Below the pieces are notes generated by a model. It was not told where the DNA came from. It saw only the letters and a list, made by a program, of their open reading frames with translations, and searched no databases. This document shows, one piece after another, positions 34,177-40,137 of a DNA stretch of 64,000 nucleotides; position 1 is the stretch's first letter; each line of letters opens with the position of its first letter. This DNA comes from Candidatus Latescibacterota bacterium. Lineage in GTDB: Bacteria; Latescibacterota; UBA2968. A program made the position numbers and the translations under genes. The stretch covers positions 3,968,001 to 4,032,000 of the forward strand of contig OZ220741.1 of the NCBI GenBank assembly GCA_965116885.1. The letters are read 5' to 3'.

Positions 34177-34935
34177 TTAGAACCGCCAGATTTTCAGGGC
34201 GGTTTTTCCGAATATCCATTCTCTGTCTTCTTCACTGAGGTCAGACAGACAATCCATTGGGACTTTGAGGCTGTTGTCGTAGCCTTCGCGTCTGCTTACG
34301 GGGGGATAATCGCTGCCCCACATAACTCTTTGGGGGCCAAAGGCTTCGATGGTCATGTCGGCGAGTGGGGGAATGGGATCAAAGGGCAAGGGCACGGGAC
34401 AGATTTCGCCGAATCCGGGGAGTTTGATGGACAGATTGGGCTGTTCGGCGAGTTCGAGAATTTTTTTAAAGGTATCATAAGGGGGCTGTTGGCCCTCGCC
34501 GATGCCCGCGAGGTGTTCGATTACAATGGACAGATTTGGAAATTCTCTGATTACTTCTGCAAATTCATCGCTCAGAAGGCTTTGGGGATTGCTCGGCGCA
34601 CTGACGACGAGGTCGAGTTCGGCTGCTGTACGCCACTGCGCGAGGGGGTCGGCGCAATCGGCGCGACTATTTGCAGGGAGACGGATGCCCACGATGCCCT
34701 GTTCTGCCCATTGTCGCATGGCTGTGCCATCGTCTGTTGGTTCGACGATCATGGCCGCTTGAAATTTTTCCGGATGTGCCGCCATGCTGTCGAGCATATA
34801 CTGGTTATCCGAGTTCCCCGCGTATTGGATGAAGACGGCACGATCAACGCCAGATGTGTTCATGTGGTAGAGTAGGGATTCTACGGGTTCGTATTTGTGA
34901 AGTCCAATGTGGCAGTGTGTATCGACAATGGTCAT
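34177..34935 (-). CDS. Amidohydrolase_2 family protein
   Basis: VDTHCH, VIEHLA, IKLPG, RVMWGSDYP. Confidence 0.9.
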   Translation of the reverse strand: MTIVDTHCHIGLHKYEPVESLLYHMNTSGVDRAVFIQYAGNSDNQYMLDSMAAHPEKFQAAMIVEPTDDGTAMRQWAEQGIVGIRLPANSRADCADPLAQWRTAAELDLVVSAPSNPQSLLSDEFAEVIREFPNLSIVIEHLAGIGEGQQPPYDTFKKILELAEQPNLSIKLPGFGEICPVPLPFDPIPPLADMTIEAFGPQRVMWGSDYPPVSRREGYDNSLKVPMDCLSDLSEEDREWIFGKTALKIWRF

Positions 34936-34961
34936 TGCGTTTTTACTCCGAAAGGGTGGGA

Positions 34962-35654
34962 TCAAAACAATGCGCCCTGTTCGGGCGGTTGTGCGGGTTT
35001 CAGGCAGTCTGGCGTGTCATTAGTAGGAATGTTGACGAGGGGAGAAACAGGATATGCTGTCATCTCTTGTGCGGAATAGGGTAAGAGAAGGGCTTGCAGG
35101 TCTGTTCGCTCTGCCGGATCGAGCCAGAGGTCATACACATCATCCCGTAGAATGACGGGCATGCGATTGTGAATCGGTGCCATCAGGTCGTTGGGTTCGG
35201 TTGTGATAATCGTACAGGATTGAATGCTATGTCCCTCGGGGGGTGATTGCCACGATTCCCAGAGGCCAGCAAAAGCAAAAGGGGCACCGGATTTGAGCGC
35301 GATATACATAGGGGTTTTGGTTCTGCCATCGGGATTGCGTTGCCATTCGTAAAATCCCGTTGCGGGAATCAGACACCGCCGTCTTTTGAAGGCCGTGCGA
35401 AATGAGGGTTTTTCCGCAAGGGTTTCTCCCCGCGCATTGATGAGCCGGTTGCCAATTTTGTGATCTTTTGCCCACGATGGAATAAGTCCCCATTTGAAGG
35501 CGTCCGCACGCGGCTCGGCAGTGTTGGCAATCGCCGTGATATCCTGGCCCGGTGCGATATTGTATCGCAAGGGTATCTCGTTGGGAAAAACGACCTGTGG
35601 AAATGCGAGTTGGTTTTCATCGCTTTGGGTAGCATAAACAAATCGACCGCACAT
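34962..35654 (-). CDS. SOS response-associated peptidase (SRAP/YedK/HMCES-like abasic-site protein)
   Basis: N-terminal MCGRF, RYNIAP, WGLIPSW, INARGET, GFYEW, IHNRMPVIL. Confidence 0.95.
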   Translation of the reverse strand: MCGRFVYATQSDENQLAFPQVVFPNEIPLRYNIAPGQDITAIANTAEPRADAFKWGLIPSWAKDHKIGNRLINARGETLAEKPSFRTAFKRRRCLIPATGFYEWQRNPDGRTKTPMYIALKSGAPFAFAGLWESWQSPPEGHSIQSCTIITTEPNDLMAPIHNRMPVILRDDVYDLWLDPAERTDLQALLLPYSAQEMTAYPVSPLVNIPTNDTPDCLKPAQPPEQGALF

Positions 35655-35845: not shown

Positions 35846-36904
35846 ATGGCAGCAGAGCTGGGTTTTGGCGTTGTTGGACTGGGTATGGGGACGAACCACT
35901 GTCGGTCTGTCACGCGGGCCAATGGCGCGAAGTTGGTGGCTGTGTGCGATTTAGATGAGGAGCGTTTGGGACCGATGGCTGAAGAATACGGATGCAAAGC
36001 TTATACGAGTTATGAGGAGATGCTTCAGGACGATGAGGTTCAGGTCGTCAACGTTTGTGTTGAGTCCGGAAAGCACGCTGAGTTGGGTATTCAGGCCGCA
36101 GATGCAGGTAAGCATATGATCGTTGAGAAGCCCGCGGATATTACGCCTGAGCGCGTTGACCAATTAATTGGTGCGGTGAAAGATGCCGGCGTAAAGGTCG
36201 GATGTATTTTTCAAGCGCGTTTGGAACCACTAAACAGGCGGATTAAAGATGCTGTTGATAGCGGTAAGCTGGGCAAGTTAATCGGCGTTCACGGCCATTT
36301 GCCCTGGTATCGCGCGGATAGTTATTATCAGGGCGCGCATGGATCGTGGAAGGGAACGTGGGATCTCGATGGGGGAGGCTCGCTGATGAATCAGGGCGTG
36401 CATACCGTCGATTTGATTCAGTGGCTTGCAGGCGGCGTCGAGTCTGTGATGGGCATGTTCGGCGTTTTTGGACACGATATCGAAGCAGAAGATCAGACGG
36501 TGGCGTTGTTCAAGTTTAAGAATGGCGCGATTGGCACGGTTTATACAACGACTTGCTGCTATCCAGGGCTTCCGCAATTGGTGACTATTTACGGAGAGAA
36601 TGGGTCAATTATGAAAGATGCTTCAAAGTTGATTTCCTGGAAGATCCAGGGTGAGAATGAGGCATCGGAAGAAGCCGAGATGCTGGGTTTTTACGGCGAC
36701 AGGGAAGACAAGCAAAAGAATATTTCAGCAGATCCGCTGGCCGTCAGTTCCGATGGACATACGCTGATTATCGAAGACCTTATCGGGGCGATCAATGAAG
36801 AGCGCGAACCTATGATTGGCCTTGAAAGCGCGCGCCACGCCGTGGAAATTATCACTGCGGTGTTTGAATCCGGGCGCACTGGGCGGGAGGTTAAGGTGGG
36901 GTAG
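35846..36904 (+). CDS. Gfo/Idh/MocA oxidoreductase
   Basis: GVVGLGMG, IVEKP, DGGGSLMNQGVHTVD; RBS GGAGG. Confidence 0.92.
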   Translation: MAAELGFGVVGLGMGTNHCRSVTRANGAKLVAVCDLDEERLGPMAEEYGCKAYTSYEEMLQDDEVQVVNVCVESGKHAELGIQAADAGKHMIVEKPADITPERVDQLIGAVKDAGVKVGCIFQARLEPLNRRIKDAVDSGKLGKLIGVHGHLPWYRADSYYQGAHGSWKGTWDLDGGGSLMNQGVHTVDLIQWLAGGVESVMGMFGVFGHDIEAEDQTVALFKFKNGAIGTVYTTTCCYPGLPQLVTIYGENGSIMKDASKLISWKIQGENEASEEAEMLGFYGDREDKQKNISADPLAVSSDGHTLIIEDLIGAINEEREPMIGLESARHAVEIITAVFESGRTGREVKVG

Positions 36905-36907
36905 AGG

Positions 36908-36940
36908 GAAGTATGAAGTATGAAGTATGAAGTGGAAAGT
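36908..36940 (+). repeat. Heptamer array (GAAGTAT)n
   Basis: GAAGTAT GAAGTAT GAAGTAT GAAGTGG AAAGT. Confidence 0.8.
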
Positions 36941-36977
36941 AAAAAAAGCCAGATATTTTGTCTGGCTTTTTTACTTT
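36936..36977. terminator. Bidirectional intrinsic terminator
   Basis: AAAGTAAAAAAAGCCAGA-TATTTTG-TCTGGCTTTTTTACTTT. Confidence 0.85.
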
Positions 36978-37336
36978 CACGGATTGTAGCCGGGGAATGC
37001 CTCTGCCATCGCTTCTTTGTCCGTGCCTGCGAATAGCCGATCGCCGGTGTGTATTAGTGGTCGGCGTATTAGTCGAGGTTGTTCAACCATGAAGCGAATC
37101 AGTTCATCCGCCGACACTTCTTCCCTGTCGAGTTTTAGCGTTCGCGCCGAAGGACTCCGCCATGAAAATATGTCGGTTGGCGGAGTGTCGCCGAGTAATT
37201 CTCGGAGTTCTTCCTCTGAGAATTCATCTTTGAAGAAATCTCTTTCCTCAAAATTCACGTCTTCTCGTGAAAGCCACGCTTTCACCTTGCGACATGTGCT
37301 TCATCTGTTCCAGGTGTAAAAGTTGATTTTAGACAT
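36977..37336 (-). CDS. ArsC/Spx/MgsR-family thioredoxin-fold protein, probable selenoprotein (UxxC)
   Basis: ATG 37336 with AGGAG RBS reads MSKINFYTWNR-TGA-STCRKVKAWL in frame with the 102-aa ORF that contains PRLIRRPLI; TGA occupies the first Cys position of CxxC. Confidence 0.85.
37267..37285 (-). promoter_or_regulatory. Candidate bacterial SECIS hairpin
   Basis: GTGAAAGC-GTG-GCTTTCAC perfect 8-bp stem starting after a 15-nt spacer from the TGA, loop starts GU. Confidence 0.65.
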
Positions 37337-37361
37337 GGATATCTCCTGTATGTTCCATTAT

Positions 37362-40058
37362 TTACATAGAAACGCCCAGTAGCCCTCGGGTGAATTGGAA
37401 GTCTGTGTTGCCCGTTAGCGGTGTTTTGGGTGTGTATTGACGAGAGGCGACGGCGATGATCTGGCGCAAGAGGGCGTCGGCATTGTGTTCGGGGTCGGCG
37501 TTGAAGATGAGGTCAAAGTCATCGCCGTAGGAATTGGCGACGCGTTCTTCGGCTGTTGTTTGAAGCATGGGGGTCAGGGGATGGCCCTGCAAGGGGTGAT
37601 CGCCCGAATAGGCGACAATGATATGGACGCCTGTGCCGCCCAATCCCGTGAGGGTTTCTACCCAGTGGTCGGTCTGGCTGTCCATGATGTGATAGCCCGG
37701 TTGGGCGGGATTTTGCCCGTGTGCAATAGTTGGGGCAGGTGGTGTGCTGCCCAGGACCTCGGATAGATAGATGGGATGGGACAGAAAACTCGCATTGTCG
37801 GGTATAACGAGCGTGGCACCTGTGCCAATCAGGGTTTGGGATAAAATAGCGAGCGATTGTGCGGCAATATCGGAAATAGAACCAGAAGCGTGAAGACCGA
37901 TGCGGAGTGCGGACAGGTGGGCGGGAGTGATTTCAGCAGGAGGCGTCTGCGTGAACTGGTTGAAAAAATAGGCTTCAACTTTGTCGAGAACGGCCTCAAT
38001 ACCGCCATCGAGTTGCACACTGGCCCATCCAAATGTATCGGGGCTGATTCCTCTATCGTCCAGTGCGTGCCGAATATAGTCGTTGTGGGTCTTTTCACAG
38101 CCGTGTTCCAATAACAGGCAGGTTTGTACGAGGGGGTGGGTGAGGTAGCCGAGCATGGTGCGCGTGTAGAGGCGTTCGGTGGCTTCTCCCGATACGCCGC
38201 ATCCTTCGGTGTGCGCGAGGGCGACAAAGCGCGAGATGCCCTTATCGTGGCCCAGCCCCTTTTCTGTGAGACGTTTTGCCGCCATTAGCGCGATTTGCCC
38301 CGAACACAGGCTGGTGGGTAGAATCAGGCCCAGGCGGTCGGTTGTGAATCCGTCCTGGGTGCGAATGGCCTCAAAGCTGTGTTCTTCATCAGCACCAAGT
38401 GTCTGAATAGCGAGCGGCACGCCCTGGGGGTCTGGCCGGTTCGTGAGATCGGACAGGTGATCTGTTGAGGTCTGTCGCCAGGTGCGCCATATCGAGACTT
38501 GCGCGTGTGCGGCCTTTTCGCCTTTGCTGCGTTCTCCAGAGGCGATTTTGCAGGTCAGGTCAAACATATCGCTGCCGAGGTCGTCCATGGAGGTGCCGTC
38601 CAGATATGCACCCGCGTTGACATCCATATCTTTGCTGAGCAACTGATAGCGTTCGGATGTGGTCACGATTTTGATGGTGGGTACAAAGGGGAAGTTTGTG
38701 ATTGAGCCATTACCCGTGACAAAAAAGATCATGTTGCATCCCGAAGCCACCTGGCCAGCGATGCTTTCAAGATCATTTCCCGGGCTGTCCATGAAATAAT
38801 ATCCTGGATCGGTCATTGGGGCGGAGTAGTCAATGACCGAATCGAGGCGAACATCTGGATGGCGTTTCATGGCTGCGCCAATTGATTTGAGAACGATATT
38901 GTAGAGGCCGCGAAACTTGTTGCCCCCGGAAGGGTTGCCTTCTGCTGTTGTGCCGTGCCATGCAGCGAAGGTTTTATAGGCTTCTACTTTGTCGAGAAAG
39001 CACTGGGCAACATCGTAAGATGATACATTTTGGAGAACGTAGGATTCTGCGCCAATGAGTTCGTCGGTTTCTGCGAGGTTGGCTGAGCCACCGTGGCGAA
39101 TGATCTCTCGTGCCACCCACGAAGCCAATGGATTGCCGGAGATGCCCGAGAATGCGTCTGATCCGCCGCATTGCAGTGCAATTTTGATGTGCGATAGGGG
39201 TTCGGGCGTGCGGACCATTGCCTGGACTTGTGGCAGCCATTTGACAATGATGTTTTCGCCCTGTTGTAGCGCGTTTTCAAAGCTGCCTTCAAGCGTGAGA
39301 AAATGGTGTAGAACATGGTCAATGGGATAATTGTTTTGCGCGAGAAATTCCCGAAGATGCTGGTTGGTGATGGCTTCGTGACCATAGTCGATTGCGAGTA
39401 CCGCACCGACGTTTGGGTGTACTGCAAATCCGGCGAGTGTACGCAATAAGAGGTCTTTGTTATTGGGGATTTCAGTGCCGCCGCCTTCGGTGTGGGCAAC
39501 CGCAACAATGCCATCGATATTGCGATAATCTCGTACGCGATCTTTTAATCTCGCTTCGAGCTGTTTAGCATAACTTGCTGTGCGAGAGGATGTTCCCAAA
39601 ATAACTATATTATTTCTCGTACCTGCACCTCGGCCTCCCGATCTTCTGTATCCCTGAAAATTACCGTAATGATCATAGCGTTCGACTTGCTCACCCGACT
39701 CAAAGGTCACCGCATCGATCTGGTGTGGAACAATGCGATCTTCAAAGTTGGGCACATTTGGAAGCTCAAAGTCGAGATCGCGGAGTTTGAGAGCACCAAG
39801 GATCTCTGGATTGCAGGCATAATCTCCAGGAGAGATATGGCGCGTTGCAATGCCAAAGGGCAGGCCCCACGAGAGGAGCGGTTCACCAGGCGCAATGGGT
39901 TGGATGGCAAAGCGATGGCCTTCGAGGATGGTGTGCCGAAGCGCGAAGGTGCGATCTGAATGGATAATCTGTGTGCCTCTGCCCAGTTTTCGGGTCGCAA
40001 TGCCGACATTGTCTCCCGGAAGAGGGGCACGACCGATTTCAGAAAAAGTATGTGTCAT
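37362..40058 (-). CDS. UxaA/GarD-family sugar-acid dehydratase, extended by an internal duplication
   Basis: N-terminal SAF-like region, HTEGGG, LQCGGSDAFSG, GNPSGGN, KSIGA..K, FVTGNGS; second HTEGCG module in the C-terminal third. Confidence 0.88.
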   Translation of the reverse strand: MTHTFSEIGRAPLPGDNVGIATRKLGRGTQIIHSDRTFALRHTILEGHRFAIQPIAPGEPLLSWGLPFGIATRHISPGDYACNPEILGALKLRDLDFELPNVPNFEDRIVPHQIDAVTFESGEQVERYDHYGNFQGYRRSGGRGAGTRNNIVILGTSSRTASYAKQLEARLKDRVRDYRNIDGIVAVAHTEGGGTEIPNNKDLLLRTLAGFAVHPNVGAVLAIDYGHEAITNQHLREFLAQNNYPIDHVLHHFLTLEGSFENALQQGENIIVKWLPQVQAMVRTPEPLSHIKIALQCGGSDAFSGISGNPLASWVAREIIRHGGSANLAETDELIGAESYVLQNVSSYDVAQCFLDKVEAYKTFAAWHGTTAEGNPSGGNKFRGLYNIVLKSIGAAMKRHPDVRLDSVIDYSAPMTDPGYYFMDSPGNDLESIAGQVASGCNMIFFVTGNGSITNFPFVPTIKIVTTSERYQLLSKDMDVNAGAYLDGTSMDDLGSDMFDLTCKIASGERSKGEKAAHAQVSIWRTWRQTSTDHLSDLTNRPDPQGVPLAIQTLGADEEHSFEAIRTQDGFTTDRLGLILPTSLCSGQIALMAAKRLTEKGLGHDKGISRFVALAHTEGCGVSGEATERLYTRTMLGYLTHPLVQTCLLLEHGCEKTHNDYIRHALDDRGISPDTFGWASVQLDGGIEAVLDKVEAYFFNQFTQTPPAEITPAHLSALRIGLHASGSISDIAAQSLAILSQTLIGTGATLVIPDNASFLSHPIYLSEVLGSTPPAPTIAHGQNPAQPGYHIMDSQTDHWVETLTGLGGTGVHIIVAYSGDHPLQGHPLTPMLQTTAEERVANSYGDDFDLIFNADPEHNADALLRQIIAVASRQYTPKTPLTGNTDFQFTRGLLGVSM

Positions 40059-40137
40059 AGATTGCATTCCTTTGAAAAGTTTGTTCACAGTTATACGGAA
40101 AAGAAAAAATGATGTCAAGTTTCATATAAAAAAGCCC

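Follow-up and report, generated by a model that had tools for sequence, protein, structure and literature searches.

An ArsC/Spx-fold gene of a Latescibacterota bacterium with an in-frame UGA and a well-supported SECIS hairpin predicts a UxxC selenoprotein

Selenoproteins of the ArsC type were already listed, as 'ArsC-like', in 2006 (PMC1794560), and the Global Ocean Sampling (GOS) marine metagenome survey of 2008 has two families of this type in its table: 'Arsenate reductase 2, cd03032, UxxC', with 42 selenocysteine (Sec, U) sequences and 238 Cys homologues, and 'Arsenate reductase (ArsC) 1, UxxS' (PMC2398784). A review of 2022 lists an 'Arsenate reductase-like protein, COG1393, UxxC', for which its reference [64] is the GOS paper (PMC9312934). 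As for more recent inventories, the database BSepDB (2026) comprises 57,630 selenoproteins, which belong to 111 families and 16,621 species; arsenate-reductase-like selenoproteins are among its entries, and its account of the ten most selenoprotein-rich bacteria includes metagenome-assembled genomes (MAGs) of Dehalococcoidia (PMC13326102). Among the titles listed from a full-text literature search on selenoproteins in Latescibacter, SAR202 or Dehalococcoidia, none is on the UxxC ArsC-like family. The gene described here lies on the minus strand, at 36977..37336, of a 64,000-nucleotide stretch (the window) of contig OZ220741.1, positions 3,968,001 to 4,032,000, from a Candidatus Latescibacterota bacterium (assembly GCA_965116885.1), and very probably it is intact and encodes a selenoprotein of 119 residues with the ArsC/Spx fold, a stand-alone redox protein whose internal UGA would be recoded through a selenocysteine insertion sequence (SECIS) hairpin. 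The comparative evidence for it covers the structure of the gene, the conservation of the TGA, the pairing of Sec with Cys among homologues, the constraint on the RNA and the Sec machinery of the genome.

Regarding the layout of the gene, the start codon ATG (37336-37334) stands 6 nt 3′ of a Shine-Dalgarno (SD) sequence, AGGAG (37343..37347), and the minus-strand translation gives the N-terminal peptide MSKINFYTWNR, then the in-frame TGA (37301..37303), then STCRKVKAWL. Reading through this TGA, the putative Sec codon and the twelfth of the gene, yields 119 codons up to the terminal stop TGA (36979-36977) and the motif U12-S-T-C15, in which Cys15, the presumed resolving partner of the UxxC pair, is encoded by a TGT (37292..37294). 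Exactly 15 nt past the TGA there is a perfect hairpin, GTGAAAGC-GTG-GCTTTCAC (37285-37267), which in the RNA makes the upper stem-loop of the candidate SECIS (37267..37285), with an 8-bp stem, GUGAAAGC/GCUUUCAC, and the loop GUG. The first-pass annotation of the window had pointed to this arrangement, and its coordinates, ribosome binding site, frame, TGA, hairpin position, 25-nt gap to the upstream gene and start of the mechanical open reading frame (ORF) at 37285 were all reproduced on the minus strand.

The TGA is a conserved feature of the gene. In a six-frame search of 60 relatives, an orthologue with 75-94% identity and one in-frame TGA was present in 18 of the 20 other genomes of the genus; of the remaining two, one had no match, and in the other (91% complete, in 430 contigs) the search recovered just the paralogue. 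Counting the gene of the window, the TGA occupies the same column in 19/19 genus genes, which are 19 distinct coding sequences with the common motif F-Y-T-W-x-R-U-S-[T/S]-C-R-K, and the Cys15 codon is TGT or TGC in all 19. Synonymous changes occur in these genes both 5′ and 3′ of the TGA. The wider family was collected by scanning GTDB species genomes with the family alignment and keeping the best 80 of 210 relatives, namely 16 loci from the same Latescibacterota genus and, at 46-71% identity, 64 from Dehalococcoidia/SAR202/Chloroflexota MAGs; with the gene of the window they form an alignment of 81 sequences, 79 distinct rows of which were counted for covariation. TGA stands at the Sec column in 80/80 of these kept relatives, the T-G of the Cys15 codon column is invariant in all 81 sequences, and the peptide before the TGA, F/Y-Y-T-W-x-R/K, is kept in frame across two phyla, with synonymous variation; on these alignments, there is purifying selection on both sides of the TGA. 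The equivalent start is found 9-13 codons before the TGA, and in 70/81 family loci it has an SD core 4-18 nt on its 5′ side. The terminal stop varies instead, being TGA in nine and TAA in ten of the 19 genus genes. In the gene of the window, the terminal TGA is followed in frame by AAG TAA (36971-36979, minus strand), a back-up stop two codons on in a Sec-decoding organism.

The same column pairs Sec with Cys. An exhaustive search of representatives clustered at 50% identity gave 816 matches at E ≤ 0.001; the best 150 of these representatives comprise 78 with CxxC, two with WxxC and 70 with no motif, and among 25 aligned full-length homologues the Sec column is Cys, in a CxxC motif, in 24 and W in one (P0123). 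The expectation raised with the first description of the locus, that homologues would show TGA or Cys at this column, is thus borne out by the 19 genus genes, the 80 relatives and the 24 Cys forms.

As for the hairpin, several measures indicate that it is conserved beyond chance, and its reading as a SECIS is well supported by the sequence comparisons. Comparable structures (perfect, at least 8 bp, with a loop starting with G and in the same position range after the TGA) follow 164 of the 181,405 TGA triplets of the genome (0.09%). Starting at the TGA, a stretch of 60 nt has a folding energy of -18.7 kcal/mol (z = -3.0), with 0/200 shuffles as stable, and the upper hairpin alone one of -10.2 kcal/mol (z = -2.5; 4/200 shuffles). 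In the 19 genus genes the upper stem is identical, save for an A-to-G change in two of them that turns a U-A pair into U-G. Synonymous diversity over codons +4 to +13 (nine degenerate codons) has a mean of 0.022, vs 0.313 at the other 79 eligible codons, and the hairpin is the lowest synonymous-diversity window of the gene, a value as low being reached in 0/100,000 random draws (Mann-Whitney p 9e-5).

Across the two phyla, RNAalifold recovered the upper helix independently from the 81 sequences, and 98.7% of the stem cells of the 79 distinct rows are paired, vs 31-52% when the 3′ arm is slid. Double-sided changes affect four of the eight pairs, with 33 compensatory cells vs 7.8 ± 2.1 in shuffles, none of 500 of which reached the observed number; pair 29-39 is A-U in 59 rows and G-C in 20, pair 26-42 is U-A in 60, C-G in ten and U-G in nine, and neither is ever broken. 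In several of these double-sided changes, one arm alters the encoded residue (Lys to Arg, Val to Ala) and the opposite arm changes synonymously, a pattern indicative of selection on the RNA. The loop opens with G in 81/81 sequences, despite this being a third codon position. The best stem found in the 81 Sec forms is 8 bp long in 74, 7 bp in five, 6 bp in one and 4 bp in one, vs 3-5 bp in the same interval of eight Cys-form homologues from related genomes, used as a control and anchored by tblastn. The locus offers a clean and well-controlled case of a SECIS lying within a reading frame, with synonymous suppression and cross-phylum covariation combined.

Regarding the machinery, the genome of the window, a single contig of 5.56 Mb, encodes selA (580.5 bits) with selB next to it (384.7 bits) and, at another place, selD (369.1 bits) adjoined by a tRNA-Sec (70.1 bits in Rfam), which has the anticodon TCA according to ARAGORN; the four are above their curated cut-offs. 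The selD gene (G000:C1:607506-608627, minus strand) itself has one in-frame TGA, in the context SCGG-U-ASK, followed after a 13-nt spacer by a hairpin with a 7-bp stem, ATCCAGC, and the loop GGT (GGU in RNA). A second gene of the ArsC family (G000:C1:5430272-5430616, plus strand) has an in-frame TGA in a UxxS motif, IYHNSN-U-SKS, and 13 nt past it a hairpin with a stem of 7-8 bp (GCGCAAT) and a loop starting with GG. Copies of this paralogue with TGA are also present in most genomes of the genus; it has ~29% identity to the UxxC gene and, by its motif, it resembles the published 'ArsC 1, UxxS' type of selenoprotein, so that the genome would hold both ArsC-type motifs of the GOS table, UxxC and UxxS. 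The UxxC gene, selD and the UxxS paralogue have a common geometry, with a spacer of 13-15 nt, a stem of 7-8 bp and a loop starting with G. One Latescibacterota genus is thereby seen to have the Sec machinery along with no fewer than three genes in which an in-frame TGA falls at a Sec/Cys position.

Taken together, these data bear out the original proposal of a 119-residue ArsC/Spx-family UxxC selenoprotein with a SECIS: the TGA is conserved, its column is Cys in homologues, the hairpin has near-zero synonymous change and covaries, and selA, selB, selD and tRNA-Sec are all encoded by the genome. In the mechanism proposed here, translation would start at the ATG at 37336, and at the UGA (37303-37301) the hairpin located 15 nt downstream would serve as a bacterial SECIS, recruiting SelB charged with Sec-tRNA(Sec). 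Sec would then become the first residue of the U-x-x-C redox motif, where helix 1 begins; Sec12 would attack and Cys15 resolve, as in a selenol/thiol-disulfide oxidoreductase. This oxidoreductase role is the most likely one, in the light of the family and of the general rule given in the review of 2022 (PMC9312934), and the product would be a stand-alone housekeeping redox protein, not a partner of the dehydratase encoded next to it.

Some points weigh on the other side. The presence of selenium in the protein is deduced from the comparison of sequences, and the functional assignment from family likeness alone, with the TIGR01617 model passed by 3 bits; nor did the 119 flanking ORFs from 61 loci reveal a conserved neighbour pointing to a substrate. 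As for the RNA, no covariation of the upper stem was found within the genus, where the stem is invariant and the test is uninformative, and the cross-phylum covariation counts sequences and not independent events, so that relatedness inflates its numbers. The loop is just 3 nt long, the two Sec forms with stems of 4 and 6 bp depart from the rest (by a simple measure), and the Cys-form controls are distant (~27-31% identity), two of the eight being of the CxxC type. A possible extended SECIS (37256..37296), in which the upper hairpin would sit on a lower stem of 6 bp (CAUGUC/GACGUG), appears in the minimum free energy fold of the window's own sequence; it is weak and not conserved, 79.6% of its cells being paired within the genus and the helix being absent from the 81-sequence consensus, and a conserved lower stem was dropped. 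Finally, contigs from RNA libraries are no proof of transcription; they are silent on decoding and cannot show one transcript across two genes.

The assignment to a family was made with profile scores computed with Cys standing in for Sec. The protein passed the Pfam model ArsC (PF03960) with 66.1 bits vs a gathering threshold of 24, and narrowly, by ~3 bits, the NCBIfam model of the Spx/MgsR subfamily (TIGR01617; 78.4 bits vs a cut-off of 75.05). The glutaredoxin-type ArsC model TIGR00014 (43 bits vs 106.05) and the YffB-type model NF008107 (38.5 bits vs 121) failed. As for NF041106, 'ArsC family (seleno)protein', the gene scored 33.6 bits vs a cut-off of 85, and 26.4 bits in the six-frame search of the genome; no gene of this genome passes that model in that search, and membership was rejected. 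The domain cd03032, named for one of the two GOS families, is what we take to be the Spx-type ArsC subfamily. An AlphaFold model built from a 31-sequence alignment (pLDDT 93.5, pTM 0.83) places the UxxC at the start of helix 1 of a glutaredoxin-like ArsC/Spx fold, and Foldseek matched it about equally well, by template modelling (TM) score, to Spx (0.80-0.82), YffB (0.78) and Escherichia coli ArsC (0.77) structures of the PDB. The predicted fold is thus that of ArsC/Spx, and it leaves the function undecided, because Spx, YffB and ArsC are matched about equally.

The alternative that survives best is that of a genuine selenoprotein that acts like Spx, which is nonetheless unlikely. The closest proteins of solved structure are Spx regulators, with E values from 7.6e-17 (3l78), through ~1e-15 (7f75, 6ghb and 1z3e), to 7.4e-14, and ArsC/YffB-like proteins trail at ~1e-7; the best NCBIfam model, TIGR01617, is above its cut-off, the top Foldseek matches are Spx-alphaCTD complexes, and the protein keeps an Arg equivalent to R60 of Spx and an RRP(L) motif resembling its RPI. 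Against such an action, the scores for all three Spx-specific models are far below the cut-offs (NF002459, 72.7 bits vs 123; NF009210, 59.4 vs 159; NF009885, 56.3 vs 152), and the fold is matched nearly as closely by YffB and ArsC (TM 0.77-0.79). Spx regulators have been described in Firmicutes, and the hosts here are Latescibacterota and Chloroflexota; the 119-residue protein presumably also lacks the C-terminal tail of Spx. In addition, G52 of Spx is reported as essential for binding of the alphaCTD (PMC8501982), and in a HMMER alignment to 7f75_G both G52 and T53 fall in a two-residue insertion that is absent here, with the reservation that the alignment of this loop is somewhat uncertain. 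In its widest form, the idea would be that of a Sec-containing, Spx-like redox sensor acting on RNA polymerase outside Firmicutes, its gene moved between phyla together with its SECIS; this is quite improbable on the sequences compared, and, if true, transcription in sponge-associated Latescibacterota and in Dehalococcoidia would be adjusted through a selenol/thiol switch of much higher reactivity than CxxC.

Returning to the gene itself, its annotation leads to the next alternative, in which the TGA is a true stop that closes an 11-codon leader, the protein starts at the GTG at 37285 (37283..37285) with 102 residues, and the hairpin has a regulatory role or serves translational coupling. This is how the gene is called at present: the mechanical ORF runs over 36977..37285, and the 120 best clusters in a collection of 5.8 billion proteins are all truncated, starting past the TGA with 'M/V-KAWLS', covering 68-85% of the query, without the redox motif, and with lengths of 89-103 residues save for one entry of 174. 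TGA is, moreover, also an ordinary terminal stop of the same gene. However, the 102-residue product would be without the entire redox motif that full-length Cys homologues keep at that place; the residues encoded before the TGA are kept in frame, at the protein level, in both phyla; the GTG lies within the stem of the SECIS and has no SD, vs the AGGAG of the ATG at 37336; and the genome has the Sec machinery. A true stop is therefore a very faint prospect, and the GTG is better seen as a start wrongly taken by gene callers.

The first-pass annotation had foreseen that pipelines would truncate the gene, as all of these 120 clusters do, and had called the selenoprotein hidden; this is correct as far as annotation is concerned and not so for the literature, in which the table of 2008 already has the UxxC ArsC-like kind (PMC2398784). 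The kind has been known since then, and the locus provides neither a new mechanism nor a new kind of selenoprotein. The few names given by the source databases are 'hypothetical protein', 'arsenate reductase-like glutaredoxin family protein' and 'regulatory protein spx'; the value of the present reading is mainly one of annotation correction, as any inference made from the truncated entries misses the redox centre.

It could also be supposed that no selenium is involved in the read-through of the UGA, and that near-cognate decoding or a mis-acylated tRNA-Sec supplies Cys or Trp there. Sequence data cannot tell which residue is inserted, and P0123 has a W at the column; even so, the complete set of selA, selB, selD and tRNA-Sec, and a SelB-type hairpin under selection, leave this explanation with very little probability, and the W of P0123 is most simply a gene call made under a table with TGA as Trp. 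Two database homologues, P0123 and P0224, have W at or near the Sec column (WxxC), and this suggests that some public calls of the UxxC family were made under that code.

Regarding the public reads, the stretch of the window is present in sponge-metagenome runs of several studies, and four of the runs, one of DNA and three of RNA libraries, have no variant at the TGA or within the hairpin, none showing the TGC or TGT that would have spoken for a Cys codon; this excludes an assembly error at the TGA. Three metatranscriptome runs have contigs over the gene, and two of these runs have a contig that bridges the TGA, X11 (37016-37498) and X12 (37235-37439). A pseudogene born of a nonsense mutation, or a Cys codon wrongly sequenced or assembled, would look alike in one genome after a single TGC/TGT to TGA change, and it is refuted by the comparative data, with the TGA in 19/19 distinct genus genes and 80/80 relatives, purifying selection on both sides and no variant in the four runs.

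As for its distribution, the gene family is common to one Latescibacterota genus and to many Dehalococcoidia/SAR202 MAGs, and a search of 40 genomes of the same class outside the genus gave no orthologue, the best matches there having ≤36% identity. All 17 Latescibacterota rows group in a single clade (SH-aLRT 96) in a rapid maximum-likelihood tree of 93 rows and 117 columns; the sister group of this clade consists of 20 Chloroflexota rows (support 89), inside a Chloroflexota-dominated radiation (support 93). The tree is based on a short alignment and has a weak root and a Cys outgroup that is not monophyletic. Together with the negative search of those 40 genomes, it is consistent with one cross-phylum transfer, in either direction, of the gene and its SECIS.

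Regarding the neighbourhood, the stop TAA (37364-37362) of a dehydratase gene precedes the ATG by 25 nt, and the first-pass annotation had proposed a redox partnership between the two products. The tblastn comparison of this dehydratase, and of the GFO/IDH/MocA gene on the other side, with 83 loci found the dehydratase upstream in 16/19 genus loci, at gaps of ~25 to ~900 nt, and missing from the three species of the genus that diverge most and from all the Chloroflexota loci (0/64). The Pfam search on 119 flanking ORFs from 61 loci had no dehydratase among its matches; the neighbours are instead lineage-specific, with DUF3179 (15 upstream, two downstream), homoserine dehydrogenase (17), carboxyl transferase (13), short-chain dehydrogenase (10), CorA (4) and MutS (3), and no ars-operon context was seen at the locus or among these ORFs. 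The partnership was therefore rejected, the adjacency being limited to close species and the neighbours differing by lineage; as judged from these loci, the adjacency is a matter of shared ancestry of close genomes, with no functional link.

The dehydratase ORF (37362-40118, minus strand) encodes 918 residues, about twice the usual length, and has two Pfam stretches each of GD_AH_second and GD_AH_C. Its halves are paralogous, with 30% identity over 162 residues (E = 9e-14), so that a UxaA/GarD-like module has been duplicated in tandem and fused; the ORF scores 197 bits vs the cut-off of 731 for galactarate dehydratase. On the 3′ side, a strong intrinsic terminator made of an A-tract, a GCCAGA/UCUGGC stem and a U-tract (36941..36972, minus strand) lies just after the stop codon of the selenoprotein gene; the region 36930-36982 folds at -21.9 kcal/mol on the minus strand (z = -7.6, 0/200 shuffles), and the terminator is probably bidirectional and common to the convergent GFO/IDH/MocA gene that ends at 36904. 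A pattern scan for promoters and terminators found no promoter, and it missed this terminator, though folding shows it. Further along the window, the gene of an SOS-response-associated peptidase (SRAP; 34962-35654) overlaps an Amidohydro_2 gene (34177-34965) by 4 nt, both on the minus strand.

In comparison with the known systems, ArsC (TIGR00014; 1i9d) and YffB (1rw1) have the same fold (TM 0.77-0.78) and their nucleophile at the same N-terminal position; they differ in that their family models failed and in that the locus has no ars-operon context. The ArsC 1 UxxS family (PMC2398784) and NF041106 belong to the same superfamily, with Sec at the homologous N-terminal position, and the former has a Ser where the UxxC gene has its putative resolving Cys. 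Spx/MgsR proteins (TIGR01617; 1z3e, 3gfk, 7f75) are the best matches in sequence and fold: C10-x-x-C13 of Spx corresponds to U12-x-x-C15 here, the R60-equivalent Arg is conserved, and an RRP(L/I) motif appears to be so, with R-R-P-L here where Spx has R-P-I. They differ from the protein described here by a Cys in place of the predicted Sec, by the G52-T53 stretch that it lacks, and by Spx equivalog and subfamily models for which it falls far below the cut-offs. As for the 'Arsenate reductase 2' family of the GOS table, the passages on it in the survey and in the later review name neither Latescibacterota nor Dehalococcoidia/SAR202 as hosts of the UxxC family, and its identity with the present one is suggested by motif and domain, not by sequence comparison with GOS members. 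The likeness to it includes the fold of the ArsC superfamily, Sec as the first residue of UxxC, the existence of Cys homologues, a SECIS just 3′ of the UGA and marine uncultured hosts (PMC2398784), and the UxxC feature is found here as U12-S-T-C15 in an ArsC/Spx-type domain whose best matches are of the Spx type.

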